Shown one piece after another: positions 5,819-49,543 of a DNA stretch of 64,000 nucleotides. The stretch is from the NCBI GenBank assembly GCA_031367345.1, contig JANLPR010000118.1, forward strand, positions 121,591 to 185,590. The letters are read 5' to 3'. The notes under the pieces are model-generated. The model was not told the origin of the DNA, did no database searches, and was given only the letters and a program-made list of their open reading frames with translations. The position numbers were made by a program, and so were the translations under genes. Every line of letters begins with the position of its first letter. The stretch's first letter is position 1. This DNA is from Bacteroidota bacterium. GTDB lineage: Bacteria > Bacteroidota > Bacteroidia > AKYH767-A > 2013-40CM-41-45.

Positions 5819-6430
5819 TTATAGAACTTTTACTTCCAACAGTTTCTTCTCTTCTAAAAAGCATTCAAGCAGATCATTTTCTTTCACGGCAGCTACACCG
5901 CTGGGCGTTCCCGTATAAATCAAATCTCCTTTACGTAAAGTAATGAATTTCGAAACGTAACTAATAACCTTTGCAAAATTGAAGATCATCAAATTGCTAT
6001 TACCAACTTGAACAACGTTTCCATTCACCTTTAATTTGAAATTGATATTTTCTGAATCATCTAATGAAGCGAGTGACACAAATTCACCACAAGGTGCAGA
6101 ATAATCAAAAGCCTTAGCCGGCTCCCATGGTAATCCATTTTCCTTTTGATATTGTTGAATATCTCTGGCAGTAAAATCGATCCCCACCGATATTTTATCG
6201 AAATATCTATTTGCAAATTCCTCTGAAATATTTTTTCCTTCTTTATTGATCTTTAACACAAGCTCAATTTCATGATGAATATCCTTCGAAAAATCGGGAA
6301 GATAGAATGCCTTGTCTTTTGGTAACACTGCTGTATCCGGCTTCAAAAAAAACACCGGGACTCCTGGGATTACATTATTAAGTTCCTTAGCGTGTTCTGC
6401 ATAATTTCGCCCAATGCAAATAATTTTCAT
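5819..6430 (-). CDS. fumarylacetoacetate hydrolase (FAH) family protein
   Basis: 203 aa. N-terminal MKIICIGRNYAEHAKE and overall FAH-domain similarity (2-keto-4-pentenoate hydratase / FAHD1-like). Confidence 0.7.
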   Translation of the reverse strand: MKIICIGRNYAEHAKELNNVIPGVPVFFLKPDTAVLPKDKAFYLPDFSKDIHHEIELVLKINKEGKNISEEFANRYFDKISVGIDFTARDIQQYQKENGLPWEPAKAFDYSAPCGEFVSLASLDDSENINFKLKVNGNVVQVGNSNLMIFNFAKVISYVSKFITLRKGDLIYTGTPSGVAAVKENDLLECFLEEKKLLEVKVL

Positions 6431-6435
6431 AGCAA

Positions 6436-7206
6436 TTACTTATTATACAATTTCAATCGTAAAGCAGTAATAACATTTTTTGTATTGGTAGCAAAATCAC
6501 CTTTCATCATCCAATCGTAATATGAAGTATCCGATTTAAATACATCAACTACTGCACGACCTTTATACTTACCAAAATTAAAAACTTCCTCATTTTTTTC
6601 ATTGTACACAATACGACCGGCTAAATCTACATTTTTCGTAATAGAGCTAAACTCAGAAAGAAAATCAATATCATTTTTTAACGTATCATATTTTTCAAGT
6701 TGAGCAAGCATTACTTCATAAGTTGCTATAGTATCCGCTTCAGCCGAATGAGCATTGGTGAGATCTTTATTGCAATAAAACTTATAGGCCGCAGAGAGTG
6801 TACGCTGCTCCATTTTATGAAAAATATTTTGCACGTCAACTAATTTTCTGGTAGTTATGTCAAATATTATTTCACAACGATTAAATTCCTCTATCAATAA
6901 TGGAATATCAAACTTATTTGAATTATACCCTGCTAAATCGCAACCACCTAAAAATGTATTTATATCTTTTGCTAAATCTTTGAAAGTAGGGCAGTCGACT
7001 ACATCCTTATCATATATATTATGAATTTTCGAAGTCTCAAGTGGTATTGGAATCGTAGGGTTGACTTTATAAGTACGAATATCTTGTGTTCCACTTGGAT
7101 TAATTTTAACCATTGAAATTTCAACTATTCTATCAGCTCCAACATTTACTCCGGTTGTTTCCAAGTCTATAAAAACAATCGGACGCTTCAAATTCAAATT
7201 CATCAA
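6436..7206 (-). CDS. DEDDh 3'-5' exonuclease (DnaQ/epsilon-like) with C-terminal accessory domain
   Basis: Exo I motif FIDLETTG, Exo III H-x4-D (HSAEADT). This is the conserved Bacteroidetes 'exonuclease' architecture. Confidence 0.7.
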   Translation of the reverse strand: MMNLNLKRPIVFIDLETTGVNVGADRIVEISMVKINPSGTQDIRTYKVNPTIPIPLETSKIHNIYDKDVVDCPTFKDLAKDINTFLGGCDLAGYNSNKFDIPLLIEEFNRCEIIFDITTRKLVDVQNIFHKMEQRTLSAAYKFYCNKDLTNAHSAEADTIATYEVMLAQLEKYDTLKNDIDFLSEFSSITKNVDLAGRIVYNEKNEEVFNFGKYKGRAVVDVFKSDTSYYDWMMKGDFATNTKNVITALRLKLYNK

Positions 7207-7209
7207 TAT

Positions 7210-8811
7210 TTATTTAGTGTTCTTTACTTGAATATTATGTACTATTTCATGGGCAGCAGCACTTTCTTCAACAACAAACTCTTCTGAATAACTTTCAAAA
7301 TTGTATCCTTCAACATGCAAAACATATTCACCTGGAATTGCCGGTAATACAAAGTCATTGAATGCTGCGGTGGGAGCAAAAACAATTTGCTTTCCGCTTT
7401 TTTTATTTTCCAAATACACTCGAGTTATTTCAATTTTTCCACCTGATGTCGAACTTACGATCCCTGAAATAAACGAAGAAAATTTATGATTGGATTCATC
7501 TTCAAAATCTACTTTATAAATGTCCTTGTCTCCTAAACCTTCCGGTCTCACTGCAGAAATATATGCAATCTTTCCATCACCTGTAAATGAAATTACCGTA
7601 TTATCATCAGCATCATTTAGTGGATATCCAATATTAACGGGGTTGCTCCATTTCCCTGTAGATTCATCCCATTCGGAACGAAAAATATCAAAACCTCCCA
7701 TGCTATTCCACCCTTTAGATGCAAAATAAAGACTTCGACCATCGAGTGATAAATAGGGGTAGTCTTCCGCATATTTGGTATTAATTGTATTTCCTAAATT
7801 GACAGCAGGCGCCCACTCGCCATTTTTACCTTTTGTAATTGAATAGAGATCACTTTCACCGGATCCACCTTTAATATCTGACGAAAAAATAATAGTTGAT
7901 CCATCTAGAGAAACAGTAGCACCACTTTCAAGCGATTTTGTATTTAATGTAGTTGGAAACAAAATCGGTTTCTGCCACATTTTTCCTTTTAACTGTGCTA
8001 CACCTACATCACCAAAAAACTCTGCATTGTCAAAATATAAAATCATCATATTTCCATCTGCAGAAAAGCCAACAGTTTCTTCATCCCATTCGGTGTTTAC
8101 TAAACCACCTGCACCTTTTGATTTAGCCCAAATAGTATCTCGCCAAACAGATGAATAAACATCTGCGGTGTAAATACCCAGATCGGCAATAAACCCACCA
8201 ATATTTCCCTTGCGTCGTGAAGTGAAAATTAAATTTTTACCATCAGCGCTGATGAATGGGTTGTATTCCTCATAAGTGGTGTTGATTGTTTTTCCCAGAT
8301 TTGTATACTTAACTTTAACAGGGCTATTGATGAGAACTTTCCCATTATTACACATTTCAATCATTCGCTCTGGCAAAGGGTAGTCTTTAAATGGCTTTTG
8401 CTTTGCATCTTTAAATTCAGTGAATGCTGTAATCGCTTCATCGAAATTATTGTTGTATAAATAAGCGACTCCCAAATGGAACGACCATTCTTTCTTCGCT
8501 TCTTTTGATTTGTATGCCTTTTCTAAATAGGGCAGTGCAGCTTTTTTATTCGCTGAAGTTTGTAAATAACAATAACCCAAACGAAAATTATATTCAGCAT
8601 TATTAGCATCAACTTTTACTAAATTCTGATAAGCAGAAAGAGCTCCATTGTAGTCACCGGTGTTGTACAATGTGGCAGCGTCTTTTTTAACCAACTTTGC
8701 TTCATCAGCTGTTAATACATGTGTCTTCGCTTTTTGACAATACGAAGTAGCGGGAAAAATAAAAATGCTTGCAAATAGAGACAAGAGTAATCTGATCGTA
8801 TTCCTTTTCAT
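7210..8811 (-). CDS. periplasmic TPR + PD40/TolB-like beta-propeller protein
   Basis: Signal peptide, N-terminal TPR-like repeats, repeated PD40-like beta-propeller blades, C-terminal carboxypeptidase-regulatory-like beta-sandwich. No OmpA domain. Confidence 0.55.
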   Translation of the reverse strand: MKRNTIRLLLSLFASIFIFPATSYCQKAKTHVLTADEAKLVKKDAATLYNTGDYNGALSAYQNLVKVDANNAEYNFRLGYCYLQTSANKKAALPYLEKAYKSKEAKKEWSFHLGVAYLYNNNFDEAITAFTEFKDAKQKPFKDYPLPERMIEMCNNGKVLINSPVKVKYTNLGKTINTTYEEYNPFISADGKNLIFTSRRKGNIGGFIADLGIYTADVYSSVWRDTIWAKSKGAGGLVNTEWDEETVGFSADGNMMILYFDNAEFFGDVGVAQLKGKMWQKPILFPTTLNTKSLESGATVSLDGSTIIFSSDIKGGSGESDLYSITKGKNGEWAPAVNLGNTINTKYAEDYPYLSLDGRSLYFASKGWNSMGGFDIFRSEWDESTGKWSNPVNIGYPLNDADDNTVISFTGDGKIAYISAVRPEGLGDKDIYKVDFEDESNHKFSSFISGIVSSTSGGKIEITRVYLENKKSGKQIVFAPTAAFNDFVLPAIPGEYVLHVEGYNFESYSEEFVVEESAAAHEIVHNIQVKNTK

Positions 8812-8837
8812 TTCCGGGAGAACTTAATGTAACGAAA

Positions 8838-10154
8838 TTAGATTGAACGATTAATATCAAATTGTTCCAAGTAATCAGCAATACGACGAAGGAAACTTCC
8901 TCCCAATCCACCATCAACTACACGGTGATCGTAAGAAAGCGATAAGAACATCATGTGTCTGATGCCTATAGAATCACCTTCCGGCGTTTCTATTACTGCC
9001 GGTTTTTTTCTGATTGCACCAACAGCTAATATAGCAACTTGCGGTTGATTAATAATAGGCGTACCCATCACATTCCCGAAAGTTCCAACGTTTGTAATAG
9101 TAAACGTTCCATCTTGAATTTCATCAGGCTTCAACTTATTATTTCTTGCTCGAGTGGCCAAATCATTTACACTCTTAGTGATTCCTATTAAGTTCAGTTG
9201 ATCTGTATTTTTAATAACCGGAACGATAAGATTTCCTGATGGAAGAGCAGTAGCCATTCCAATATTAATATATTTTTTAACAATTATTTTTGTACCGTCA
9301 ACCGAAACATTTACCATTGGAAAATCTCTGATGGCCTTGCATACCGCTTCAATAAAAAGAGGAGTAAAAGTGATCTTTTCTTTTTCTCGTTTCTCAAACG
9401 AACTTTTTACTTTCTCTCTCCATCTTACAAGATTGGTAACATCTGCTTCTACGTAAGAAGTAACGTGAGGCGATACGTGCTTCGACATTACCATATGGTC
9501 GGCAATAAGCTTACGCATCCGATCCATTTCAATGATTTCTACATCTCCAGAAATGGAAACCGCAGGAGGAGTATATGTTTTTGGTGCAATAGCTTGAAAG
9601 GAAACATTACTTTGCGATTGTAGTGCAATAGGCTTTTCTGTTCTTGATGAAATGTGATCTATCAAATCCTGCTTAGTGAGGCGATTATTAGACCCTGAAC
9701 CTTTGATCGTTTCCAACTCATTCATCGGCACACCTTCTTTCTGTGCAATATTTCTAACCAACGGAGAATAAAAACGACCACTGGCAGAAGTCTTTTCCAC
9801 CGAAATTGTCTCGGCACTTACTACACCATTTGAAGAAACAGGTTCAACAACTTTACTAGATTCAACAAGCTTAGGAGTATTCAATTTTTCAGTACCAGAA
9901 TTTACTTCTGCTTTTTCTCCCGCGCCGGAAATCAGTGCAATGACTTCACCAACTTTAACAACCTGGCCTTCTTCAAATAATCGCTTAGAAATAATCCCTG
10001 CCGATGGTGATGGAACTTCTGAGTCTACTTTATCTGTGGCAATCTCTAAAATTGACTCATCAGCTTCAACTGAATCACCTTCTTTTTTTAACCATTTTAA
10101 TATGGTTGCTTCTGCAACGCTTTCGCCCATTTTGGGCATGATCAATTGGATCAT
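8838..10154 (-). CDS. 2-oxoacid dehydrogenase E2 component (dihydrolipoamide acyltransferase)
   Basis: Lipoyl-attachment motif (ATDKVDSEVPSP), Ala/Pro-rich linker, peripheral subunit-binding domain, catalytic DHRVVDG motif. Start trimmed to the internal MIQLIMPKMGES. Confidence 0.8.
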   Translation of the reverse strand: MIQLIMPKMGESVAEATILKWLKKEGDSVEADESILEIATDKVDSEVPSPSAGIISKRLFEEGQVVKVGEVIALISGAGEKAEVNSGTEKLNTPKLVESSKVVEPVSSNGVVSAETISVEKTSASGRFYSPLVRNIAQKEGVPMNELETIKGSGSNNRLTKQDLIDHISSRTEKPIALQSQSNVSFQAIAPKTYTPPAVSISGDVEIIEMDRMRKLIADHMVMSKHVSPHVTSYVEADVTNLVRWREKVKSSFEKREKEKITFTPLFIEAVCKAIRDFPMVNVSVDGTKIIVKKYINIGMATALPSGNLIVPVIKNTDQLNLIGITKSVNDLATRARNNKLKPDEIQDGTFTITNVGTFGNVMGTPIINQPQVAILAVGAIRKKPAVIETPEGDSIGIRHMMFLSLSYDHRVVDGGLGGSFLRRIADYLEQFDINRSI

Positions 10155-10222
10155 GGAATAGATTGATATGAATGTGTACTTTCTGAACTTATTGCTCCCG
10201 TAGAGCGAATACAAATTTATTA

Positions 10223-12214
10223 TTATTTACTTCCTAAAGGAGATTTTCGACCTAATTTTCTCCACCCTTTTCGAATAATATGTAAGTCGGTATAAACCTT
10301 GTAATCTTTTGCATATAAAGAATTTAGCCTATTAGTGGTAAGTTCATCTGTTGGTATATTTTCTAAGGCGTCAACAGGACTCAATATTCCTGGGCGAATT
10401 GAAGGTAAATTGAGAAGTCCGTTCCTCGAAAATGAATAACTAACCCACGATGTTTTACCAATCATTACATTAAAAATATTCGCCAAAAAACCACCGGGGT
10501 CTTGTTGAAATAAAATAATCAATGGCGAGAATAGTAGAAACACAATTGAACATATAATATCAATTAATCTCTTGTTTCTCTTATTTACAATTTTGTTGAT
10601 GCTATTGATGTCAATCACATATAATTCACCGGGGTCTTCTACAGAATTACTGCCGATAATAAATAAACTTTCAGGAGGTGCAATCTTAAACTCAAGATCA
10701 GCACGTTTCACTTTTGACATAACATCAATAATCTGATGAGATGAAATATCTTTCCCACAGAAAATTATCTCATCAACAGCATAGACATCTGTAATTTCAG
10801 CAATCCTATTAAATTCACCCAAGTAGTACTTTTCATATTCCTGAAATGCACGATCTTTTTCATGTACACTTTCAGGCTGTACAAAACCAATAAAGTTATG
10901 AGACGTATCAGACAATTTCAAAAGAGAAAGCACACGATTACTTTCTTCTTCCTTTCCCACAATAATCAATTTCTTTCGGTAATCGCCCGAAAGATTAAAA
11001 TTCTGCTTTCGAATTACATTTATTAAAAATCGAAAACCAACAATTGAAAGAGTAGCCCAAACACTTCCAAGTAAAATAATTGCTCTTGAGAAACGATAAC
11101 TTTCAGGAAGCAATGCATAAACTACCAGGATCAATAATGTACCCAAAAAAACTCCTCTAATAATGCGACTCAATTTTATTGGTTTATCATATCCGCCACT
11201 AAAAAATATAGAAGTGATCCAGATGAGCCCATACAATGGCACCGCAAATTTCATAAATTCATCCGGGTAATTAATCATAAAGTTTGTTCCCCAATAATTC
11301 TTTAGCAGAAAAACACCAATAATTATTAATGCAAGATCCGAAATAGGGAAAAAGAAATTATCAATAAATCTCGATAAAATTGCAACTCCTGCTCGCAAAT
11401 AAACAGCGATATTGATAAAGAATGAAAACAACGAGGCATTTGATTTTGAGAAATGCTTTTTCGCAAAAATGATCATTGCATTATAAAAAACGAAAACATA
11501 ATTTACACTTGTACGCTTTGTACTTTCGCCTTTATAATGAATAATCCTTGTCTCTGGAAAATAATAGTTTTTATATCCTGCTTTTGTTATTCGATATGAA
11601 AGATCAATATCTTCTCCGTACATAAAGAAATCTTCGTCTAAAAGACCAATCTCATTCAGCACTTTGCGACGCAACAACATAAAGGCTCCTGCCAAAATAT
11701 CAACTGTATTGATTTCATTTTCGTCCAAATATCCAAGATGATATTTACCAAATTTTTTACTCTTTGGAAATAGTTTTGATAACCCAAAGATTTTATAAAA
11801 AGCAACATCATAGGTTGGCAATCCTCGCTTAGATTCAGGCAAAAATTTACCACTTCCATCAATCATTTTTACACCTAAGCCACCAGCATCAGGATGTACA
11901 TCCATAAATTCAATTATCTTTTCAAATGTATCTTCTTCTACAACCGTATCAGGGTTTAAGAGTAACACATATTCTCCGCTAGACTCACGAATAGCTTGAT
12001 TGTTTGCCTTGGAAAAACCTCTGTTATCTTTATTTGCTATTACTTTTACTGTCGGAAATTTCTTCAGAACCATTTCTACACTTCCGTCAACAGAATTATT
12101 ATCCACAACCCAAATTTCAACTGAACACTTTTCAGCAGCCTTGAGAGTAGAGTGGAGGCACTGTTCGAGAAAGTACTTCACATTATAATTAACAATTACG
12201 ACAGATAGTTTCAC
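10223..12214 (-). CDS. family-2 glycosyltransferase fused via TM segments to a degenerate polyprenyl-phosphate sugar-transferase-like C-terminal region
   Basis: N-terminus MKLSVVIVNYN...DNNSVDGS...NRGFSKANN (GT2 DxD region). Central multi-TM segment. C-terminus RLIDIICSIVFLLFSPLIIL then DPGGF..NIFNVMIGKTSWV aligns to the flanks of the bacterial sugar-transferase domain but lacks the KFRSM/DEIPQ core present in the 16474..17889 paralog. Confidence 0.65.
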   Translation of the reverse strand: MKLSVVIVNYNVKYFLEQCLHSTLKAAEKCSVEIWVVDNNSVDGSVEMVLKKFPTVKVIANKDNRGFSKANNQAIRESSGEYVLLLNPDTVVEEDTFEKIIEFMDVHPDAGGLGVKMIDGSGKFLPESKRGLPTYDVAFYKIFGLSKLFPKSKKFGKYHLGYLDENEINTVDILAGAFMLLRRKVLNEIGLLDEDFFMYGEDIDLSYRITKAGYKNYYFPETRIIHYKGESTKRTSVNYVFVFYNAMIIFAKKHFSKSNASLFSFFINIAVYLRAGVAILSRFIDNFFFPISDLALIIIGVFLLKNYWGTNFMINYPDEFMKFAVPLYGLIWITSIFFSGGYDKPIKLSRIIRGVFLGTLLILVVYALLPESYRFSRAIILLGSVWATLSIVGFRFLINVIRKQNFNLSGDYRKKLIIVGKEEESNRVLSLLKLSDTSHNFIGFVQPESVHEKDRAFQEYEKYYLGEFNRIAEITDVYAVDEIIFCGKDISSHQIIDVMSKVKRADLEFKIAPPESLFIIGSNSVEDPGELYVIDINSINKIVNKRNKRLIDIICSIVFLLFSPLIILFQQDPGGFLANIFNVMIGKTSWVSYSFSRNGLLNLPSIRPGILSPVDALENIPTDELTTNRLNSLYAKDYKVYTDLHIIRKGWRKLGRKSPLGSK

Positions 12215-12273
12215 AGCTATTGTTCAGAGATTTTCAAAAGTAAAAAAGGAAACGTGGTCTTTGATGTCATAAA

Positions 12274-12903
12274 TTATTTGATCAAAGAATTTTCGTAAGG
12301 AACACGTTGAATAATTGAACGACCTAAAGTTACCTCATCAGCGAATTCTAAATCACTGCCAACAGAAATTCCTCTAGCAATAGAAGTAAATTTCAAATCC
12401 TTTCGTTCGCTCTGATTTATTTTTTTATAAATAAAATACGATGTTGTTTCACCTTCCATAGTAGCAGGTAAAGCAATAATAATTTCCTTGAATCTATTAT
12501 CTTTTAATCGATCTAGCATAGAAGGTAGGTTAAGGTCGTTCGGGCCTATACCATCCATTGGAGAAATAATTCCTCCTAAAATATGATAGTATCCTCTGTA
12601 TTGTTGTGTGTTCTCAATGGCAATTACATCTCTAAGATCTTCAACAATACATAGACATTGAGTGTCTCTGCTTTGATCAGCGCAGATATCACAAACATCT
12701 GACTCCGAAATATTATGACAAGTTGCACAATATTTTACTTCATTGTGTAATCGAGTAAGAGCATTCCCCAAACGGTAAGAACTTTCTTTATCAGATTTCA
12801 ATAAGTGCAAAACTAATCGTAGTGCAGTCCGCTTTCCAATACCGGGTAAGCGACTAAACTCAGCGACAGATTCTTCTACTATTTTTGATGAAAGTGGACT
12901 CAA
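12274..12903 (-). CDS. recR: recombination protein RecR
   Basis: HhH motif (FSRLPGIGKRTALRL), C4 zinc finger (CATCHNISESDVCDIC), Toprim domain. The ATG at 12978 gives a 30-aa non-RecR leader; the likely true start is a TTG near 12903 (LSPLSSKIVEESVAEF). Confidence 0.8.
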   Translation of the reverse strand: MSPLSSKIVEESVAEFSRLPGIGKRTALRLVLHLLKSDKESSYRLGNALTRLHNEVKYCATCHNISESDVCDICADQSRDTQCLCIVEDLRDVIAIENTQQYRGYYHILGGIISPMDGIGPNDLNLPSMLDRLKDNRFKEIIIALPATMEGETTSYFIYKKINQSERKDLKFTSIARGISVGSDLEFADEVTLGRSIIQRVPYENSLIK

Positions 12904-13084
12904 AGTAGTGTTGATAATTAAAGGCCTATATAACGGTAATGAGCTTGCTAAATTACTTATTTTGGGACTTGAAGCCAAGAATATTTATTGTTTTATTAAC
13001 GCAATAAAGTGCATGAATGAATCTTGCTTTTCATTCTTATCCTTGAATATTCAACTACGTCAAATTACTTAAACCAACTCATCA

Positions 13085-14618: not shown

Positions 14619-15557
14619 ATGAAAATTACTAGTATTATTCTATTGTTATTGCTCACAGAAATTGTGTTCGGAATTCAGACAGAAAAATTACCAAAACATA
14701 AAATTTCCGGAAAGGAATATTATATTTATTCAGTCAACCAAGGTGATAGCTGGTATTCAATCGCAAGAAAATTTAAATTGAGTTATTCAGAAATCCGTCT
14801 TTCCAACAAAGAGTCGGATAAATTGATTCCGGGAAAAAAAATAAATATTCCTGCTGCGAAACTAAAACTCAACGATCCTTTTTTCGAGAAAAATCATTTA
14901 GATACCAAGAGTAACGCCCCTGAAAAATCAGCTGCAAAAACGCACAAAGTAAAGGCGGGTGAAAACTTATTTTCCATTTCGAAAAAATACAATCTTTCAG
15001 TAGAAGAAGTAAAATCACTAAATAACTTGAATTCAAATACAATTCATAAAGATCAAATTTTAATTGTGAGCGAGCCCAAAAAGGAAGTAAAGGAAATCAT
15101 AGCACGTTCTAAAAAAGAAAGTACAGAATTAGTCAAGCCTGTGGTTGATTCAGAGAAAAGTGAAATAAAGTCTCCCAATTCGAAAGAAGATAAGAGAGAA
15201 GTTGAAAGTATAGCACCGGCTGTAACAACTAATAAAAAAGAAGAAGCAAAAATTATTTTCTCAAACAGCCGACAAGAATTTAATGAGACAGGTGTTGCCG
15301 GTTGGCTGGAAGATCAAAATTCTAAATCAACAAAATATTATGCTCTTCATCGCACAGCTCCAATAGGTACGATCATAAAAATTACCAATAGAATGAATTC
15401 AAGTTCTATATATGTAAAAGTTGTAGGAAAATTACCTGACACAGGAGACAATTCCGGTTTGATCATTAAATTGTCAAAAGCAGGAGCAGAAAAGCTGGGA
15501 GTAATTGATGAACGTTTTCAAGCAGAATTAGTATATGGACTAAACAAATCAAAGTAA
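14619..15557 (+). CDS. secreted LysM-repeat protein with C-terminal RlpA-like double-psi beta-barrel domain
   Basis: Signal peptide. Two LysM motifs (YYIYSVNQGDSWYSIARKF..., HKVKAGENLFSISKKYNL...). C-terminal YALHRTAPIGTIIKITN...VKVV resembles the RlpA/DPBB fold. Confidence 0.6.
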   Translation: MKITSIILLLLLTEIVFGIQTEKLPKHKISGKEYYIYSVNQGDSWYSIARKFKLSYSEIRLSNKESDKLIPGKKINIPAAKLKLNDPFFEKNHLDTKSNAPEKSAAKTHKVKAGENLFSISKKYNLSVEEVKSLNNLNSNTIHKDQILIVSEPKKEVKEIIARSKKESTELVKPVVDSEKSEIKSPNSKEDKREVESIAPAVTTNKKEEAKIIFSNSRQEFNETGVAGWLEDQNSKSTKYYALHRTAPIGTIIKITNRMNSSSIYVKVVGKLPDTGDNSGLIIKLSKAGAEKLGVIDERFQAELVYGLNKSK

Positions 15558-15558
15558 G

Positions 15559-16446
15559 TTAACGAACAAATTTGTCTGCTACTTTTATTTCTTTTGACCC
15601 ATCCTGGTAATTATAAAATCCGATTTTATTTTTCACACCTAAGTTACCTGCTGCAACCATATTTACCAGCAAAGGACATGGAGCATATTTGGGATTACCA
15701 AAGCCTTCGTGGAGAACCCGGAGAATAGAAAGACATACATCCAAACCAATAAAATCAGCGAGTTGCAAAGGACCCATAGGATGAGCCATTCCTAATTTCA
15801 TTACTGTATCTATTTCTTCAACACCGGCAACTCCTTCGTAGAGTGAATAGATTGCTTCATTGATCATTGGCATTAATATTCGGTTTGCAATAAATCCGGG
15901 ATAATCATTAACCTCAACCGGTATTTTTTCCAACTTCTTTGAAAGCTCAACGATTGTATTAGTCACTTCATCACTTGTTGCGTATCCACGAATAATCTCC
16001 ACCAGTTTCATAAGAGGAACAGGATTCATGAAATGCATTCCAATTACTTTATCTGCACGTTTAGTTTGCGCTGCTATTTGTGTGATCGAAATAGAAGAAG
16101 TATTGGTAGCTAAAATGGCTTCAGAATCACAAAATTTATCGAGATCTCTAAAGATCTTACATTTCAAATCAATATTTTCAGTAGCCGCTTCTACAACTAA
16201 TCCGCAGCCTTTAACTCCTTCTTCAAGTGAAGTAAATGTAACAAGATTAGAAAGGGCTGCACTTTTATCCTGTTCAGTCAACTTGCCTTTTATAATCATA
16301 CGATCTAAATTTTTTCCGATTACATCTTTTGCACGTTGAAGTGCATCCGACGAAACATCGATCATATTTACTTTAAATCCATATTGTGCAAACACATGCG
16401 AAATACCATTCCCCATTGTTCCTGCTCCTATAACTGCAACTTTCAT
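15559..16446 (-). CDS. hbd: 3-hydroxybutyryl-CoA / 3-hydroxyacyl-CoA dehydrogenase
   Basis: Rossmann N-terminus MKVAVIGAGTMGNGI and C-terminal 3HCDH dimerisation domain; 295 aa. Confidence 0.8.
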   Translation of the reverse strand: MKVAVIGAGTMGNGISHVFAQYGFKVNMIDVSSDALQRAKDVIGKNLDRMIIKGKLTEQDKSAALSNLVTFTSLEEGVKGCGLVVEAATENIDLKCKIFRDLDKFCDSEAILATNTSSISITQIAAQTKRADKVIGMHFMNPVPLMKLVEIIRGYATSDEVTNTIVELSKKLEKIPVEVNDYPGFIANRILMPMINEAIYSLYEGVAGVEEIDTVMKLGMAHPMGPLQLADFIGLDVCLSILRVLHEGFGNPKYAPCPLLVNMVAAGNLGVKNKIGFYNYQDGSKEIKVADKFVR

Positions 16447-16473
16447 AGCGTACTTTTAAAAATTAAACAACTA

Positions 16474-17889
16474 TTATTTTCCTTTATGCTTAATGATAAT
16501 CATAGCCGTATAGATCATAATTTTAAAATCAACAGCTAACGACATATTTTCAATGTATATCAAATCGTATTTCAAACGCTCAATCATTTGATCTACATTT
16601 TCTGCATAACCAAATTTCACTTGACCCCATGAAGTAATTCCCGGCCTTACCTTGTGAAGATGTCGATAATGAGGTGCTTTCTCCATAATGAGATCAATGA
16701 AGTATTGTCTTTCCGGTCGTGGACCAACAATACTCATATCTCCTTTCAACACATTATAAAATTGTGGTATTTCATCCAAACGAATCTTCCGCATCCATCT
16801 GCCAAATTTGGTAATTCGTGAATCGTACGAACTTGAAAGTTGAGGTCCTGCTCGTTCGGCATTTTTCATCATCGAACGAAATTTATAGATCTTGAACGGT
16901 TTACCATGTAATCCAATACGCTCATGACTATAAAATAATCCGCCGGGTGATGAAATCATTACACCAATTGAAGTAAAAAGATAAAGAGGAGAAAAAATAA
17001 CCATTACAAAAATCGAAAGGAGAATGTCAAGAATCCTTTTCAATGATTGTTGCCAAACCGGCATAAGATTAGGAGATATTTCAATTAGTGGCGCACCAAA
17101 AATCGAATTCATTTTTACTGAACCTGAAAGTATATCGTACATATCAGGAATAATTTTTACGATTACAGATGTTTCTTCCAACTCGTTAATGATATTTCCT
17201 ATGCTTTCGTGTTCTGAAGATTCAAGTGCAATGATTGCTTCTTCAATTTTCAATCGCTCAATAATATCTTTAAGGTTTTTAATACCTCCCAAATTATCCA
17301 TTTGGCCGGAAAGTAAATGATCATTGTTTCCATCTACGTGAACAAATCCTACAAACTTATTTCCTGCAGACCGAAATTCATTCTTCATGGAATGAAGCAA
17401 ATTGACGGCATTCAAATTACTACCAATCATTATCGTATTAAACCCAAGCTTTCCTTTGTGAATACGATTGACTACTTGAGTTGACAATGTAAATCGGAGC
17501 GAAGCCGTAATAATAAAATGGAGGCTGAGTAAGGTGAAAAAACTTTGATAATATGACTTATAAGAAATAACTGTATCATCAAGTAACAATGAAAAGAAGA
17601 TGATCAATACGCCTAACAAAGAAAGGAATAAAGTTTGTCCCAATTCTTTCAAACGACTTTTTCGAAAAACATCTTGATAATTACCTACCAATGCATATGT
17701 AATTACCCAAGCAATTGGTATAAAAAAAATTCCGTAAAAAAATTTTTTATCTTGTAAAAAGATGGCTTTTGAAAAAAGTTGCGACTCAATAATTAATTTT
17801 CTATAAATGAAAAATAAGGCCCATGCCAAAGTTGCCGAAAACCAATCGGCGACAATAAACTTAGCAGTTTGGAATTTATTATTCATCAA
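16474..17889 (-). CDS. undecaprenyl-phosphate sugar phosphotransferase (WbaP/WcaJ-type initiating transferase)
   Basis: N-terminal TM bundle. C-terminal catalytic domain ...GKPFKIYKFRSMM...DEIPQFYNVLKGDMSIVGPRPE... with full motif set. Confidence 0.85.
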   Translation of the reverse strand: MMNNKFQTAKFIVADWFSATLAWALFFIYRKLIIESQLFSKAIFLQDKKFFYGIFFIPIAWVITYALVGNYQDVFRKSRLKELGQTLFLSLLGVLIIFFSLLLDDTVISYKSYYQSFFTLLSLHFIITASLRFTLSTQVVNRIHKGKLGFNTIMIGSNLNAVNLLHSMKNEFRSAGNKFVGFVHVDGNNDHLLSGQMDNLGGIKNLKDIIERLKIEEAIIALESSEHESIGNIINELEETSVIVKIIPDMYDILSGSVKMNSIFGAPLIEISPNLMPVWQQSLKRILDILLSIFVMVIFSPLYLFTSIGVMISSPGGLFYSHERIGLHGKPFKIYKFRSMMKNAERAGPQLSSSYDSRITKFGRWMRKIRLDEIPQFYNVLKGDMSIVGPRPERQYFIDLIMEKAPHYRHLHKVRPGITSWGQVKFGYAENVDQMIERLKYDLIYIENMSLAVDFKIMIYTAMIIIKHKGK

Positions 17890-18767
17890 TACACAACTTT
17901 AAAATTATCGAAATAGAGATTGGCTGTTGTTAGGTTAGCCGGTTTCTCTGCTCTCAAATAAATATTATATGCAAGGCCATTACTAATAACCCCTCCCAAA
18001 TCATTTAAATTTATATAAATTTTCTTCCAAGAGTTTGATGCCCGTACACTAAGCAATTCCCATTTTGTAACAGACGAAGTAGTAATATATGTTCCTACTA
18101 CAAAATCGATATCACTCTTATAGTTTAGTTCTACGTACGATAAAGTAGTTACCGGTAAATAGTAGGGCAAATTACCGGCAACTTCAAAAACTGTATTAGT
18201 ATCTACCAAAGTTACTTTCCCTGAATTGCCTTCAAACACATTTGGATCAGGAGGTGTTATAATTGTAATCGGAGTATTTCCTTGTGTAGTTTTAACCAAA
18301 TTCAAACTTGCATCATCAAAATCTTCCATGATTGGAAAAGTAACATATGTCTCATATCTTATTATAGGATGAATAGAATACGTTTTTGCAGCAATCATAT
18401 CAGTAATTGTCGTATCAAAATTTGCATACTTAGGGAATGCAGCTCTCATTCCTGAAATTCCGTCTATTACGATTCCTGCTTTCACTGTAATTTTATGAGT
18501 GCCGGTTCCTGAAATTGGAAACTTACATGGTAATGGAAATGTGCCTAGATAAACTCCATCAATTAATATCCATGCATCGGTAATTTTATTTGCATTACTT
18601 CCTTGTGATGCATAATCTGTCGTTAACTGAATACTTTCAATGGACACATAGGTTGGAATAGGAGATGGAGGTTCAACAATAGAACAAGCATTGAGCACAA
18701 AACTGATGAGTAAAAAAAATACTCCATTAAAAAAAGTAGTACGAAGATTGGTTTTCATTTTAGGCAA
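17886..18767 (-). CDS. lipoprotein of unknown function
   Basis: Lipobox LNACS. 293 aa with no recognisable catalytic motif. Start overlaps the downstream gene by 4 nt and the stop region overlaps the upstream gene, so it is translationally coupled between the oxidoreductase and the sugar transferase. Confidence 0.5.
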   Translation of the reverse strand: MPKMKTNLRTTFFNGVFFLLISFVLNACSIVEPPSPIPTYVSIESIQLTTDYASQGSNANKITDAWILIDGVYLGTFPLPCKFPISGTGTHKITVKAGIVIDGISGMRAAFPKYANFDTTITDMIAAKTYSIHPIIRYETYVTFPIMEDFDDASLNLVKTTQGNTPITIITPPDPNVFEGNSGKVTLVDTNTVFEVAGNLPYYLPVTTLSYVELNYKSDIDFVVGTYITTSSVTKWELLSVRASNSWKKIYINLNDLGGVISNGLAYNIYLRAEKPANLTTANLYFDNFKVVY

Positions 18768-19761
18768 TGACGTTCAAGGATACATTAATCTTATCCATTA
18801 TTTGATGAGCTACTACTAGTGCTTGATAACCCTCCTCTATGGTTACAGGTGTTTCTTCGTCTTCCAAAATAGCATGTATCCATTGTTCCAGTTCCATTTT
18901 GATTGCATTACTTTCTTCAACTTTCGGTTGATCAAAATAAATAATCTTTGAACCTTTATTATTACCAAGATCAATTGTAATGTCGAGAGGACCCGGATCA
19001 CCTACTAAGTTTTTTAAACGTACTACTTCGGTTTTTCTTTTGAAAAAGTCGACAGATATATAAGCATCTCGTTGAAAAAATCTGCTCTTCCTCATATTCT
19101 TTAACGAAATTCTACTTGCAGTTAAATTAGCAACGCATCCATTATCAAATTCCAAACGTGCATTCGCTATATCGGCAGTATCGCTTACAACTGCAACGCC
19201 ACTTGCATTTATTTTTTTTATTGGCGACTTCACCACACTTAGAATAATATCGATATCATGAATCATCAGATCGTGAACAACTGATACATCTGTGCCGCGA
19301 GGATTAAATTCAGCGAGACGATGTGTTTCAATAAACAAAGGAGAATTCAAATAACTTTTAGCGGCTAAAAAGGCTGGGTTAAATCGTTCCACATGTCCCA
19401 CTTGAGCTTTCACAGCAGCTTCAGTTACCAATGAAACTAATTGTTTTCCTTCATTTACTGTATGCGTAATTGGCTTTTCAATAAAAACAGCTTTGGAAGC
19501 ACGCAAGGCCTTAACGGCATATTCGAAATGTGATATTGTTGGAGTTACAATATCGATGGCATCAGCCTCCGCAATAAGTTGATCCACATCTTCGTAAAAG
19601 GGAATTCCTGATTCGTTACTAAATACTTTTGCATATTCAACATTGTTATCGTAAAATCCAATCAGTTGAGCATTCCCGATCTCTTTTAAGAGTCGAATAT
19701 GTATTTTCCCGAGGTGCCCGGCACCAATGACTCCTACTTTCAACATCTTCCTGAAAATCAA
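18760..19761 (-). CDS. Gfo/Idh/MocA-family NAD(P)-dependent oxidoreductase (UDP-sugar dehydrogenase-like)
   Basis: N-terminal Rossmann KVGVIGAGHLGKIH...; C-terminal GFO_IDH_MocA alpha/beta domain. Confidence 0.75.
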   Translation of the reverse strand: MIFRKMLKVGVIGAGHLGKIHIRLLKEIGNAQLIGFYDNNVEYAKVFSNESGIPFYEDVDQLIAEADAIDIVTPTISHFEYAVKALRASKAVFIEKPITHTVNEGKQLVSLVTEAAVKAQVGHVERFNPAFLAAKSYLNSPLFIETHRLAEFNPRGTDVSVVHDLMIHDIDIILSVVKSPIKKINASGVAVVSDTADIANARLEFDNGCVANLTASRISLKNMRKSRFFQRDAYISVDFFKRKTEVVRLKNLVGDPGPLDITIDLGNNKGSKIIYFDQPKVEESNAIKMELEQWIHAILEDEETPVTIEEGYQALVVAHQIMDKINVSLNVIA

Positions 19762-19889: not shown

Positions 19890-20573
19890 TTGCAACCTAT
19901 GATTAATTTACCGGAAGACAATTTCAAGCATCAAGGAATGCGGAAAAAGCTAATTGAACAAGTTAGGGCGAAAGGCATTGAGAGTGAGGACGTTTTGAGC
20001 GCAATGATGAAGATTCCGCGTCATTTTTTCCTTGAATTAGCCTTTTTAAATCAAGCTTATTCTGACCATGCTTTTCAAATTGGCGCCGGTCAAACAATCT
20101 CACAACCCTACACGGTTGCTTTTCAAACTGCATTATTAGAAATCAAAAAAGGAGATAAAGTTTTAGAAATTGGAACCGGTAGTGGGTATCAAACGTGTGT
20201 TCTTTTGGAAATGGGAGCAAAGGTGTTTTCAATTGAACGTCAAAAAGAATTGTTCGACAAAACAAAAGTTCTCTTGAGTGCAATGAATTATTCTCCTAAA
20301 TTGTTTTATGGTGATGGATATAAAGGTTTACCATCATTTGCACCATTCGATAAAATATTAATTACCTGCGGCGCTCCATACATTCCGGAAGAGCTGGTGA
20401 AACAATTGAAGGTGGGAGGTAGGATGGTTGTTCCTGTGGGTGCAGGAGAAGTACAAATGATGACATTGATAGAAAAAGCATCAGAGGATACGATTGTAAA
20501 AACTGAACTCAAAAACTTCCGATTTGTACCTATGTTAGAAAATAAAGAAAGTGGTGGAAGTTTGAATAAATAA
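19890..20573 (+). CDS. pcm: protein-L-isoaspartate O-methyltransferase
   Basis: SAM-binding motif VLEIGTGSGYQT and typical PCMT N-terminal region (RVLSAMMKIPRHFF). Confidence 0.8.
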   Translation: MQPMINLPEDNFKHQGMRKKLIEQVRAKGIESEDVLSAMMKIPRHFFLELAFLNQAYSDHAFQIGAGQTISQPYTVAFQTALLEIKKGDKVLEIGTGSGYQTCVLLEMGAKVFSIERQKELFDKTKVLLSAMNYSPKLFYGDGYKGLPSFAPFDKILITCGAPYIPEELVKQLKVGGRMVVPVGAGEVQMMTLIEKASEDTIVKTELKNFRFVPMLENKESGGSLNK

Positions 20574-20687: not shown

Positions 20688-22085
20688 TTAATTATCCCAA
20701 TACAATTTAGGATTCTGCATTGTAGAATTTTGATTGTAAGAATTTGGATTGTACAATCTTTCATTCGTTGGATAAATCAATCTTCTTGGAATTGGACCTA
20801 CAGCACCTGCATTTGGTTGAAGATTTGGTTGACCTGTTCTTCTCCAGTCAGTGAATGATTCCGGTTGTAAATAATTTGCAAAATACTTTTGTAATAAGAT
20901 TAAATTCAATTTGTCAGTTGAAGTACCAACCCAAATTACATTTGCAGCTTGATAAGTAGCATCATCAATTGCAGTTACTCCAAGCTTAGCCATATTTGCA
21001 CTTACCGCTTCATGAAGCGCAGTTTCTGCACCTGCATCATCACCTAAACGCATTTTAGCTTCAGCTTCGATAAATTTTTGCTCAAAATAAGTGAAGAAAT
21101 AAACCGGAGCTGTTTGGCCTATATAGTATTCTGTAGGTAAACCAAAATCGTAATAAGCTCCACTCACATCAATCATAGCTGCAAAACGAGGATCATTGTT
21201 TGCTTCCATTGCATTTGTCAGGTAATTACCAACATGAAAATTTGTATCAATCGATGAGTAGGAGATGTCTGCTCGTTGATCGATATACTGGTACCATGGG
21301 TTTGCATTAGAAGCATCAGGGAAACTTAACTGAGCATCATCACTTGTACCTGTTAAAGCCCCGGCATTGATTGCATCTAATGCAGCCTGAGCAGCTGTAG
21401 TTGACCCAAGCTTTGTTAGGTGAATCGCCATGCGAGCTTTTAATGCATTCGCAAGCTGACCCCATTTAGCAAGATCTCCACCATAGATAATATCATCACT
21501 TCCCGGAGTTTTAAAGTCGTCAGAAGTATTAGCAAAATCAGCGATTGCTCCATTCAATAATCCTGGAAGTATAGCAGTATAAATCTCCTGCTGTGTGTCA
21601 TAAGGAGGATTGATCTTTGTATTTCCTTGGAACGCACTTGTGTAAGGAACATTACCGAAAAGATCAGTCATCGTCATTAGAGAATAAGCCATCATGACCT
21701 TAGCTACTCCGTTATAGGCGTCGTACTTACCTGGAGTTTCTTCGGCTTTGAGCATGATTTGATGAAAATCTTCCATGTTATTAGCATACATATTATTCCA
21801 AAGATTATTAAAATCTTCTTCGGTAAAAATGTAGCTATTGTATGCACCAAATTGACGATTAGCGCCTGTAGCATTTTGTGCGAAGATTGCATTGTATCGT
21901 GCAATATCTCCTCCAAATGTAAATGCCAAAGAAACTTGTCCAGCAGGAAGAATCATATTTACCGGAACGTCTTTCGGCAAATTAGGGTTGTCGTTTACGT
22001 CTAGAAAATTCTTTTCGCAACTCGACAACGAGAATACAACAACAATTGCTGCAGCAACTCGAGTGACTATATTAATTTTTTTCAT
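20688..22085 (-). CDS. SusD/RagB-family nutrient-binding outer-membrane lipoprotein
   Basis: Lipoprotein signal (SLSSCEKNFLDVNDNPN). 465 aa with TPR-like helical SusD fold. Immediately downstream of a SusC-like gene. Confidence 0.8.
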   Translation of the reverse strand: MKKINIVTRVAAAIVVVFSLSSCEKNFLDVNDNPNLPKDVPVNMILPAGQVSLAFTFGGDIARYNAIFAQNATGANRQFGAYNSYIFTEEDFNNLWNNMYANNMEDFHQIMLKAEETPGKYDAYNGVAKVMMAYSLMTMTDLFGNVPYTSAFQGNTKINPPYDTQQEIYTAILPGLLNGAIADFANTSDDFKTPGSDDIIYGGDLAKWGQLANALKARMAIHLTKLGSTTAAQAALDAINAGALTGTSDDAQLSFPDASNANPWYQYIDQRADISYSSIDTNFHVGNYLTNAMEANNDPRFAAMIDVSGAYYDFGLPTEYYIGQTAPVYFFTYFEQKFIEAEAKMRLGDDAGAETALHEAVSANMAKLGVTAIDDATYQAANVIWVGTSTDKLNLILLQKYFANYLQPESFTDWRRTGQPNLQPNAGAVGPIPRRLIYPTNERLYNPNSYNQNSTMQNPKLYWDN

Positions 22086-22116: not shown

Positions 22117-25100
22117 TTAAAGTGTAACTCTAACACTGAAGCCATAACTACGAGTTGAAGGCATGTTAAAATAATCCATACCCAAACTATTTCCTGCACC
22201 TGTTAAGCTGGTCTCAGGATCAATTCCCTGGTAGTCAGTTTTTATCCAAAGATTTCTTCCTATCAAAGAAATATCAATACTCCCAAATGGAGTTTTCTTT
22301 AACCATTTTTTGTTAACTGAATAACTTAATGAAAGTTCACGAAGCTTAACATAAGAACCATCTTCTATATATTGCTCCGCTGGTCCTGTAAAACCGGAAA
22401 GAACTCCAAATTGTCTGCTGGTCTCATCTAATGTAGCTATGGCAGTATTTGCATCACCTGTAATAACCAAATTGTTGTTTGAATCATAGTATCCTCTTAC
22501 CCCATCAAATACTTTTGTTTCGCCACGAGTCTCTGTTCCTTTAGATGTACCAAAATAGTCAAGTACTCCTCGCGTTCCATTCCAAATATCGCCACCTTTT
22601 TTAATGTCAATTAAGAAGCCCAATGAAAAACCTTTATAGGTAAAAGAGTTTGAAATACCGCCTGTCCAATTTGGATTTGGATCTCCGATTACACCAACAG
22701 TTGGATCTTGAATTGGAAGTCCGTCAGCTTCATTAACAACTACACGACCATTTCCATCTCTTAACCAACGGCCACCATAAATTTGTCCATAAGGTTGACC
22801 AACCACTGCATAAATAGCAGATCCTTCAAATCCACCTAAGAATAGATCATTGATACCATCTGCAAGAGCAGTAACTTTATTACGATTTCTAGCCCAGTTC
22901 AATGTGATATTCCATTCAAAGTTTTTTGTTTTAACAGGTGAAGCATAGACTAACAATTCAACACCTTTGTTTTCCATACTACCTGCATTTTTTATTTGAT
23001 ATTGATAACCTGACGATCCAGCAATTGGAACCGGAAGTATTTGATCAACTGAGTTATTGGAATAGTATGTTAAATCGACTCCTAAACGGTTATCAAGGAA
23101 TTTTAAGTCAGCACCAATCTCAAAACTTTTTGTTTTCTCAGGTTTCAAGTTTGGATTTCCAAGTGTATTATCAGCTGTATAACCTGCAAGACCACCAAAT
23201 GGGAAAGTAACACCGGATGTCCAACCATCTGCAAAAACTCCGGTTGTAAAATAATTATATAAACCAAATACAGGGGCATCATTTCCTACGATCGCATAAG
23301 AAACACGCAGCTTTCCATAAGGAAGTGTTTTGCTATTCATCTTCAATGCATCAGTAAAGATCCATCCCAAACTAGCTGAAGGGTAGAAGAACGTATTGTT
23401 ATCAGTTGGTAATGTAGAAGATGTTGAAGCACGCCCTGTAAGATCTAAATAAAGATAATCTTTGTAGCTAAGTTTTGCCTGAGAATAAAAAGCGTGAGTT
23501 CTATATTTTGTGTATGACTCTCTCGTAATAATAGTAGTAGCAACAGAGATATTCTGAAAATTAGGGAAATTTAATTGATCTCCTTCAACATATAAATTTG
23601 ATTTATACGATCCAAAAACGTTATTACCAATTAATAAACTTCCTTTGAAATCCGGATTAAATGTTTTGTTCAAAGTAACAAATAGATCGCTGTTTACATG
23701 GCGGTAAAAGATATCTTGGTGGAAAATTTTTCCGTCAGGATATGTTCTTGATCCAAGTGCAATTATTTGTTTGCGATTATCGCTATAAAAATCTGTTCCT
23801 ATACGGTAAGTTACATCCATCCATGAATATGCGTTATAAACTGCAGATACAGAACCGAACATTCTATTTACATCATCATTAAAAGGGTTTTGGTTAACAG
23901 TCCAATAAGGATTGTCATATCCTACGCCACCACGATAATTTCTCTGTCCGCCATTGGCTAACAAATAAGCACTAGAAGCTTCGGGGTCTGAATTACCATT
24001 AGAGTTGTCGAACGATATTGGTGTTCTAAGTAGACCTAACATCAAACCGGAAGTATTACTTCCTTGTTGTGTTCTACGTCCGCCAGACTTCGAATAAGTA
24101 ATATTACCAGTTGCAGACATTTTTTTAGAAATCGCACTTGAACCAGCAATTGAAAGAGTGTATCTTTTAAAATTAGAAAGAGGAACTACACCTTCATCAG
24201 ATAAACGAGAAAAAGACATTCTATAAGTAGAAGCATCATTTCCTCCTGACATAGCTACATTATTTTCAGCTGTAAATCCGGTACGGAAAAATTGATCTGA
24301 ATTATTGTATGGCGAAAATTTAATAGCACCTGGAGTAGTGCCAGCAGCAGTAGCGCCAATCAACTGACCATTCTGACTGAATTGAGAAGTTGCTGCGGGA
24401 TTCCAATAAGTCGTATCTCCTGATGGCCCCCAGCTTCCTGAAGTACTACTTTCATAAGAACGATATGCTCCTAGTTTACCTTTCACAAACTTATTTTGAA
24501 GTTCCGGCAATCTGTTAACTTCACTCCAAGTAAAACTTGAACCAACAGATACGTTCACACCACCACCAACTTTTTTAGCACCTTTCTTAGTGGTAATAAT
24601 GATGGCTCCGTTAGATGCATTCAAACCATAAAGGGCTGTTGCTGCAGGCCCTTTTAAAACGTTGATCGACTCAATGTCGTCCGGATTAATATCGACCGCA
24701 CGATTGGAGTTGTTTACACTTTCAAGGAAATTGTTTCCACCGTTGTCAGGATTTCCTGATGCATCATGCGAGTTATCGATAGGCACTCCATCAATAATAA
24801 ATAATGGATCGTTGCTACCGGTAATAGAAGAAACACCACGTAAACGAACATTAACTGATGAACCGGGAGTACCCGATGAATTTGTAACTTGAATACCAGA
24901 AACTTTTCCGGAAAGACCACTTAAAGCATTAGGCTGGCCGGCCTTATTTAAATCAGTTCCGGAAACTACTTGAGTAGAATACCCTACAGATTTTTTCTCT
25001 TGTTTGATTCCGATTGCTGAAACCATTACTTCATTCAATTGAAGCGCATCAACCTCTAGCAAAAAATCAATAGTGTTGGAAGCTCCCAGATCAACCTGTC

Positions 25101-49357: not shown

Positions 49358-49385
49358 AGGTCACAAATATACTTTATTTCCTGAA

Positions 49386-49403
49386 CCCCTTACTGGCAAG
49401 GGG
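49386..49403 (-). terminator. possible weak terminator hairpin between the two giant genes
   Basis: CCCCTT-ACTGGC-AAGGGG stem-loop; poor T-run on the minus strand. Confidence 0.25.
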
Positions 49404-49543
49404 CTACAGAAGACAATATGTTTATCAACAACCTAAAAATAAAGTTTATAACAGCCTAGTTCAAGTATAAATCGTCAAAACCCACAAAAAAATTGGCTAA
49501 CAGCAGTGTTCGCTTGGTTAAAATCCTATTGCTATTCCCAAAA

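Follow-up and report, generated by a model that had tools for sequence, protein, structure and literature searches.

We analyzed a stretch of 64,000 nucleotides (hereafter, the window) from a Bacteroidota bacterium (assembly GCA_031367345.1, contig JANLPR010000118.1, positions 121,591 to 185,590), in which the minus-strand gene at 10223..12214 encodes a protein of 663 amino acids. This protein is a glycosyltransferase family 2 (GT2) domain set ahead of an entire large phosphoglycosyl transferase (Lg-PGT): the four-transmembrane-helix (4TMH) bundle, the Rossmann-like domain called DUF, the hairpin, the re-entrant helix and the C-terminal half of the catalytic domain follow one another collinearly. 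From the PGT part, about 55-60 residues are gone at residues 571-578, including the KFRSM motif and the Asp-Glu dyad. A sequence-only reading of the window had described the gene as a GT2 domain fused to a PGT that lacks its catalytic core, and this is borne out by pairwise and profile alignments, by a scan with the Bac_transf model (PF02397) and by the fact that orthologs share the truncation.

The published architecture of Lg-PGTs comprises the 4TMH bundle, the DUF, a domain-swapping hairpin and a monotopic PGT (monoPGT) core (PMC10942596). The open reading frame (ORF) of the fusion is uninterrupted over its 663 codons, and the N-terminus of its product, MKLSVVIVNYN, is as in homologs. Its parts are as follows, with the evidence for each in parentheses.

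10223..12214, minus strand: whole gene of the fusion of GT2 and pseudo-Lg-PGT, 663 amino acids, GTG start, stop codon at 10223-10225 (ORF list; 60-100% identity to full-length homologs with 650-665 amino acids)
11450..12214, minus strand: GT2 domain of GT-A fold, residues 1-255 (PF00535, motifs, GT-A structure matches)
11351..11449, minus strand: hydrophobic/amphipathic linker helix, residues 256-288 (AlphaFold2 (AF2), Kyte-Doolittle)
11000..11350, minus strand: four-helix transmembrane bundle homologous to the N-terminal 4TMH bundle of Lg-PGTs, residues 289-405 (TIGR03025, hhalign, AF2, Kyte-Doolittle, structural match to WbaP)
10670..10999, minus strand: Rossmann-like DUF (CoA_binding_3-like), the cytoplasmic domain of Lg-PGTs, residues 406-515
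10592..10669, minus strand: segment equivalent to the beta-hairpin, residues 516-541, IIGSNSVEDPGELYVIDINSI (hhalign to the Lg-PGT hairpin region)
10505..10591, minus strand: re-entrant membrane helix of the monoPGT catalytic domain, residues 542-570 (hhalign, hmmsearch)
10481..10504, minus strand: junction or deletion scar, residues 571-578, QDPGGFLA (gap in hhalign; WbaP 307-374 without a match)
10226..10480, minus strand: retained C-terminal half of the monoPGT catalytic domain, residues 579-663 (Bac_transf fragment, alignment of the soluble remnant)

Similarity to large phosphoglycosyl transferases

The earlier reading located the similarity in the C-terminal 120 residues, by comparison with an intact Lg-PGT encoded at 16474..17889 of the window. 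The strings on which it relied do match at both flanks, with fusion residues 549-568 and 579-593 corresponding to residues 285-304 and 376-390 of the Lg-PGT. However, the extent was put too small: residues 292-568 align with positions 2-279 of the 445-position NCBIfam model for Lg-PGTs, TIGR03025, at an E-value of 8e-21. Similarly, the transmembrane (TM) bundle that was read as joining the GT2 domain to the remnant does consist of TM helices, but together with the cytoplasmic domain it constitutes the N-terminal two thirds of an Lg-PGT. Tested for the Lg-PGT architecture, the fusion has both the N-terminal 4TMH bundle and the Rossmann-like DUF, while its whole-protein TIGR03025 score (74.8 bits) lies under the curated cut-off of 295.55.

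Comparison of families gave the same picture. We aligned residues 291-663 from 20 members of the fusion family with 22 members of the intact Lg-PGT family using hhalign, and obtained a match over 297 columns (Prob 95.3%, E = 2e-8) that is interrupted by one large gap, at Lg-PGT residues ~319-373, and by a second gap of ~11 residues after the GPRP motif. A profile of the fusion family searched against the sequences of the PDB matched only WbaP proteins at E<=0.01, four of them at E ~1e-6 and the structure 8T53 itself at 0.0016. The WbaP match comprises three collinear pieces, skips WbaP residues 307-374 and places 'SLDELPQLF' opposite 'pagllknif'. In Foldseek the sole significant match was again WbaP 8T53 (E = 9e-10); the C-terminal half had been modelled separately because the whole model returned GT-A matches only.

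It is important to consider whether such similarities are confined to generic TM sequence. The non-TM remnant, residues 571-656, aligns by itself with the part of the Bac_transf domain that comes straight after the dyad (Lg-PGT 374-459; P = 4e-4), scoring 25.6 as compared to 12.0 +/- 2.3 for shuffled sequences (maximum 22), and none of 200 column shuffles reached 25.6. The Pfam model Bac_transf itself has no match in the full-length fusion; given the C-terminal fragment, it scores 15.1 bits, under its cut-off of 27, and covers profile positions 94-173 only, so there is no complete domain. The similarity between the fusion and Lg-PGTs is well beyond chance and is not restricted to TM sequence.

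Residues lost and retained in the PGT module

Conservation was assessed in a close set of 70 homologs and in a distant set of 46 full-length representatives, which with the window protein make 47 sequences; all identities are to the window protein. Nothing in the fusion corresponds to KFRSM (Lg-PGT 336-340) or to DEIPQ (Lg-PGT 372-376). The distance from the proline of the re-entrant helix to the NIFNV helix that follows the dyad is 15 residues in the fusion and 75 in the intact Lg-PGT. At the dyad itself, 'SLDELPQLF' pairs with 'PGGFLANIF', and there is no acidic pair at this place in the 47 diverse members. The GPRP motif is also lost, and reads SYSF in the fusion. We also asked whether a DE dipeptide at residues 623-624 might be the dyad in a new place, but dismissed the idea, since position 624 varies across homologs.

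MonoPGTs work via a covalent phosphosugar-Asp intermediate, for which the dyad is the site. Because the deletion takes away KFRSM and the dyad, and GPRP is lost as well, the pseudo-PGT module cannot form this intermediate. The active site of the small monoPGT PglC has been defined biochemically and consists of this dyad, D93-E94 (PMC10186338).

The re-entrant helix, on the other hand, keeps a Lys-Arg pair (K548-R549), Asp552 and a Ser-Pro pair (S563-P564). Conservation of K548, R549, D552 and P564 is 91% or more, even among distant members. In PglC, Lys7-Arg8 and Ser23-Pro24 have been determined experimentally to set the re-entrant topology, and roles in lipid contact have been described (PMC6133551). 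AF2 predicts a helix-break-helix in this region of the fusion, at residues 542-561 and 563-569. In the C-terminal half, Y634, Y638 and D643 are conserved, and K548, D552, Y634 and D643 are near-invariant even in distant members. D643 may correspond to the aspartate that forms a salt bridge with Lys7 of PglC.

The fusion descends from an Lg-PGT, yet it fails the defining catalytic feature and all curated thresholds, and should not be filed as a PGT.

Conservation and distribution of the family

A HMMER scan with residues 291-663 against 1.84 billion representatives (clusters at 50% identity) found 409 clusters at E<=1e-30, and with few exceptions the representative matches listed are a single stretch that ends at the match's own C-terminus. 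The best 120 homologs have about 625-705 amino acids and are 59-100% identical; PF02397 is detected in none of them, nor in members down to 32% identity or in relatives from rumen Bacteroidales. Among the matches listed, more than 600 species genomes across Bacteroidota have a match. The best 80 of these species-genome matches are essentially full length, and come from Flavobacteriales, Bacteroidales (Prolixibacteraceae, Lentimicrobiaceae and rumen lineages), Saprospiraceae and Hymenobacter. The orders represented are Flavobacteriales, Bacteroidales, Chitinophagales and Cytophagales.

The modules are conserved to the following degrees (identity in the close set, then in the distant set).

GT2 domain: 0.81, 0.65
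4TMH bundle: 0.56, 0.38
DUF: 0.54, 0.29
Re-entrant helix: 0.52, 0.38
Junction: 0.33, 0.18 (lowest of all segments)
C-terminal remnant: 0.56, 0.34

The C-terminal remnant is therefore conserved to the same degree as the TM and DUF modules. The truncation is common to all full-length homologs checked, and P564 and N579 are spaced 13-15 residues apart in 47 of 47 sequences. Given this fixed spacing, and the lack of an acidic pair in all 47, we conclude that the deletion was a single ancient event, and that what remains has been under purifying selection ever since. Such selection on the retained piece appears equal to that on the other modules.

These observations bear on the hypothesis that the PGT module retains residual PGT activity, or is a functionless relic, whether a decaying leftover or an artefact of assembly or frameshift. 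That no Bac_transf match rises above threshold and that the junction is poorly conserved would agree with a relic. However, architecture and spacing are the same in every one of the diverse full-length members, the species genomes among the matches listed are numerous, the ORF is uninterrupted, and the remnant, with its four near-invariant residues, is kept as well as the TM and DUF modules. We accordingly rejected a pseudogene or assembly artefact on the grounds of conservation, and we give the hypothesis as a whole virtually no credence. For the same reasons the word "degenerate", which had been applied to the remnant, is inappropriate: the deletion is ancient, of fixed length and family-wide.

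A few homologs carry C-terminal extensions that open with a hydrophobic stretch resembling a signal peptide, namely P0141 (963 amino acids), P0140 (678) and P0158 (1359). Those of P0141 and P0140 go on with CarboxypepD_reg domains and with SPOR domains, which bind septal peptidoglycan. Since the 963-residue form occurs on several contigs, the joining of the fusion to an exported protein encoded downstream is real in that lineage. We considered the SPOR extensions as a clue to function and rejected them, because they look like lineage-specific fusions of this sort and are not a feature of the family.

The GT2 domain

In the full-length fusion, Pfam recognizes the GT2 domain alone. PF00535 matches residues 4-189 with 92.1 bits (gathering threshold 23.3; E = 5e-26), and Glyco_tranf_2_3 and Glyco_trans_2_3 also match. 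Foldseek finds GT-A structures in the PDB at E ~1e-12, and the AF2 model of the domain has a pLDDT (predicted local distance difference test) of about 90. The usual motifs are VVDNNSVDGS (36-45), NPD (87-89), YGEDIDLSYR (199-208) and HYKGEST (226-232); as expected for a GT2 of GT-A fold, they supply a DxD-type motif (N87-P88-D89) and E201-D202-x-D204 in the acceptor half. D38, D43, N87-P88-D89, Y199-G200-E201-D202-I203-D204, H226 and G229-E230-S231 are invariant in the 70 homologs of the close set. With all usual motifs present and invariant, the GT2 domain is apparently a working one.

One possible role for such a domain is as a processive synthase-exporter in the manner of hyaluronan synthase, cellulose synthase, PgaC or NodC. 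The Glyco_tranf_2_3 and Glyco_trans_2_3 matches point in this direction, and Foldseek aligns the hyaluronan synthase of a Chlorella virus over about 470 columns. However, the root-mean-square deviation from that enzyme is about 17 A, models of PgaC and NodC cover residues 2-111 only, and the fusion has no QxxRW motif and indeed no RW dipeptide anywhere. Since its TM helices are, moreover, homologous to the Lg-PGT bundle and not to a channel, we consider this role very unlikely.

A second possibility is that the GT2 domain makes sugar-linked undecaprenyl phosphate (Und-P), as do GtrB, ArnC and dolichol-phosphate mannose synthase (DPMS), with the re-entrant helix supplying Und-P and the product flipped for periplasmic glycosylation. 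The ancestral PGT module bound Und-P, not a sugar linked to undecaprenyl diphosphate (Und-PP). This ancestral substrate, together with the contacts between re-entrant helix and polyprenyl phosphate known from the literature, speaks for the idea, and there are weak matches to DPMS (PDB 5mlz, residues 1-110, E = 2e-5) and ArnC (E = 0.011; 14.7 bits as against 529). However, these matches span the generic nucleotide-binding half alone. The acceptor half, with its YGED and HxxGxS motifs, has its best partial matches among enzymes of the rhamnosyltransferase, GlfT1, MftF and GalNAc-T type, and not of the GtrB or DPMS type. We therefore think that this possibility is improbable, if less so than a processive synthase.

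Topology and structural models

AF2 and Kyte-Doolittle analysis place TM helices at residues 283-307, 320-339, 346-374 and 378-399. Across the preceding linker, AF2 predicts a single long helix (257-312), and Kyte-Doolittle analysis marks a segment at 261-282. Homology to WbaP and the distribution of Lys and Arg suggest that the GT2 domain, the DUF and the remnant are all cytoplasmic. Because the GT2 domain and the DUF would thus both lie on the cytoplasmic side, the linker helix (256-288) is probably interfacial and not membrane-spanning.

Outside the GT2 domain, the most conserved stretch is the hairpin segment, 516-541 (close-set identity 0.79, distant-set identity 0.44). In monomer models, pLDDT is under 50 at residues 523-536. 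The WbaP dimer is held by the DUF and a domain-swapped hairpin, and this hairpin is likewise poorly placed in monomer models (PMC10942596).

Proposed function

We think it somewhat probable, from sequence and from models, that the fusion is an active membrane-anchored GT2 that uses the pseudo-PGT as a module for anchoring, polyprenyl-carrier binding and dimerization. Together with the re-entrant helix, the four TM helices would hold the GT2 active site at the cytoplasmic face of the membrane. The re-entrant helix, with its Lys-Arg and Ser-Pro pairs, and the amphipathic C-terminal half may still form a polyprenyl-phosphate groove. Such a groove would present a sugar linked to undecaprenyl-(di)phosphate, to which the GT2 domain would add the next sugar from a nucleoside diphosphate sugar. 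The DUF and the conserved hairpin could mediate homo- or hetero-dimerization, and possibly the sensing of uridine nucleotides. That the remnant binds a lipid carrier or forms a complex while the GT2 domain adds the next sugar had been suggested in the sequence-only reading, and we regard it as the best hypothesis at present. Since the gene belongs to the syntenic housekeeping core of Bacteroidota, its product is probably an envelope glycoconjugate that is conserved, and not a capsule or O-antigen particular to a strain.

It is important to emphasize that several points weigh against this proposal. It supposes carrier binding by a PGT that has been deprived of about one third of its catalytic domain, and in real PGTs the deleted part holds residues that contact the phosphate. 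The AF2 model has a predicted template modelling (pTM) score of 0.63, and the proximity of the GT2 site to the re-entrant groove is an assumption. No GT2 subfamily model in NCBIfam reaches its curated cut-off, and hence donor and acceptor cannot be assigned. No glycan-pathway gene recurs in 80 related loci, in which the other recurrent neighbors are housekeeping genes. Finally, neither an experiment nor a characterized ortholog was found, and the names in databases are just "glycosyltransferase" or "GT2 family glycosyltransferase". A homolog search seeded with a member from rumen Bacteroidales, together with a cluster look-up, gave no ortholog in a model organism and generic names only.

Genomic context and the intact Lg-PGT

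The immediate neighbors of the fusion gene are the following.

12274..12978: recR, upstream
8838..10214, minus strand: 2-oxoacid dehydrogenase E2 acyltransferase, downstream

Beyond the E2 gene are genes for a TPR/PD40 protein, an RNase T-like exonuclease and an FAA hydrolase, and the whole block, 5819..12978, is on the minus strand. Of the 80 related loci, 35 have recR upstream of the fusion gene and 23 have the E2 gene downstream of it. The block from recR to the FAA hydrolase is partly syntenic in several orders of Bacteroidota, with clusters of neighbors recurring in 13-35 of the 80 loci. The E2 ORF, as mechanically listed, begins at TTG, some 20 residues ahead of the conserved lipoyl-domain start of homologs, MPKMGESVAEATI; its true start is probably an internal Met, leaving about 60-70 nucleotides to the stop codon of the fusion gene.

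The intact Lg-PGT, which serves as comparator and candidate partner, is encoded in a separate cassette.

18760..19761, minus strand: GFO/IDH/MocA oxidoreductase
17886..18767, minus strand: protein of ~293-294 amino acids without a Pfam match, whose ends overlap both neighbors, by 4 and 8 nucleotides
16474..17889, minus strand: intact Lg-PGT, 471 amino acids as listed, 470 in homologs
15559..16446, minus strand: 3-hydroxyacyl-CoA dehydrogenase

This Lg-PGT carries KFRSM, the D372-E373 dyad and GPRP. It has a complete PF02397 domain (214.6 bits) and CoA_binding_3, and its TIGR03025 score is 373.9 bits, as compared to the cut-off of 295.55. Its family is strongly conserved, with 470 amino acids and at least 69% identity among the best 120 homologs. 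The cassette (15559..19761) recurs in three loci (L081, L082 and L083) without the fusion gene nearby, and has the appearance of a glycan-initiation module that is part of the core and not specific to a strain.

The sequence-only reading compared the fusion with the product of this gene, which lies 4 kb away. The two proteins do align at both flanks of the deletion, but they are distant paralogs with 22-24% identity, and the Lg-PGT gene is not a conserved neighbor. A conserved operon link was rejected: the Lg-PGT gene is within 6 kb of the fusion gene in 0 of the 80 loci, and in L081-L083 the fusion gene is not within 8 kb of the Lg-PGT gene. The distance of 4 kb in the window is incidental.

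A variant of our preferred proposal, in which the fusion is a membrane-anchored GT2, is that the fusion acts as an adaptor in a hetero-complex: the pseudo-PGT would pair with the 470-residue Lg-PGT through the DUF and a hairpin swap, and the Und-PP-sugar would be handed to the GT2 domain. WbaP is an obligate dimer through just these elements, the hairpin is the best conserved segment outside the GT2 domain and is placed as poorly in the AF2 monomer as in that of WbaP, and the Lg-PGT family is also highly conserved and is found on the same contigs and in the same genomes. However, the two genes are never neighbors outside the window, and their hairpin sequences differ, each family keeping a conserved pattern of its own, with which homodimers are just as compatible. 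We therefore regard this variant as possible but unlikely. In its boldest form, which we put forward as speculation and hold to be less likely again, the dead PGT body captures the polyprenyl-diphosphate-sugar made by the true Lg-PGT, which is just as conserved, possibly within a hairpin-swapped heterodimer, making a committed two-enzyme initiation complex for a Bacteroidota-wide glycan (e.g., a general O-glycosylation core or another envelope glycoconjugate). The fusion would then be the first recognized monotopic PGT pseudoenzyme.

Other genes in the window are noted here for completeness. Between the fusion and Lg-PGT genes is a plus-strand gene (14619..15557) for a LysM-repeat protein of 312 amino acids, in which two LysM domains are accompanied by a long linker of low complexity, rich in Lys and Glu; such a gene is near the fusion gene in 7 of the 80 loci, those of the closest relatives. 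A SusD-like gene (20688..22085, minus strand; SusD-like_2, E = 3e-63) comes after an ORF of 1075 amino acids (22117..25344, minus strand), and in L081 and L082 the ORF in the position of the latter encodes a SusC-like, TonB-dependent receptor. Beside these two lies a gene for a PCMT methyltransferase (19890..20573), and L081-L083 show the same gene order. On the minus strand, 45098..52939 is occupied by two adjacent ORFs of very large size (1419 and 1131 amino acids).

Comparison with known systems

In the synthesis of bacterial glycoconjugates, the first step that is committed to the membrane is gated by monotopic PGTs, whose systematic cataloguing is under way. The closest known systems are the Lg-PGTs themselves (WbaP, WcaJ and CpsE; TIGR03025; PDB 8T53), with which the fusion shares a collinear architecture and among which WbaP is its top match in both structure and profile. 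The fusion differs from them in the absence of the ~55-60 residues and of GPRP, in its additional N-terminal GT2 domain, and in that its gene is a housekeeping, syntenic one outside any glycan cluster. As for the small monoPGT PglC (PDB 8E37/5W7L), its active-site segment with Asp93-Glu94 is absent from the fusion.

In the BiPGT class, by definition, a PGT core is joined with either a glycosyltransferase or an acetyltransferase (PMC11257628). Like BiPGTs, the fusion unites a PGT-derived module and a second catalytic domain of a glycan pathway in one polypeptide. However, BiPGTs as described have two catalytic domains and a PF02397 core, whereas the PGT core of the fusion is dead and under PF02397 detection, so that the active core of a BiPGT is lacking. 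The membrane-bound PglF-like and Cap5D nucleoside diphosphate sugar dehydratases represent a parallel reuse of the 4TMH and DUF module; they have neither the re-entrant helix nor a PGT catalytic remnant, and their added domain is C-terminal, in contrast to the N-terminal one of the fusion. Rhamnosyltransferases of the WbbL type and GlfT1 (TIGR01556, NF050113), which are membrane-associated GT2 enzymes with lipid-linked acceptors, resemble the GT2 domain in the GT-A fold and in the NPD, YGED and HxxGxS motifs, and their models match it in part, but the fusion scores far under their curated cut-offs, and these enzymes have no PGT chassis.

We found no published description of a catalytically dead monoPGT or of an architecture joining GT2 to a pseudo-PGT, although a network analysis of monoPGTs and a review of fusion classes may hold an earlier mention. 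Because the fusion scores below the PF02397 model, surveys seeded on that model would probably miss the family. The pseudoenzyme architecture is clear, well supported and widely distributed, and apparently undescribed.

If our proposal is true, the PGT fold has a separable non-catalytic role, in membrane positioning, polyprenyl-carrier binding, dimerization or nucleotide sensing, and the fusion would be a natural system in which to study how the first step of glycan assembly is coupled to the second at the membrane. Its presence as a core syntenic gene, and not in a variable capsule or O-antigen locus, points to a conserved glycan pathway in Bacteroidota, and cultured carriers that include Hymenobacter and Prolixibacter make the fusion a concrete target for knockout experiments and biochemistry.

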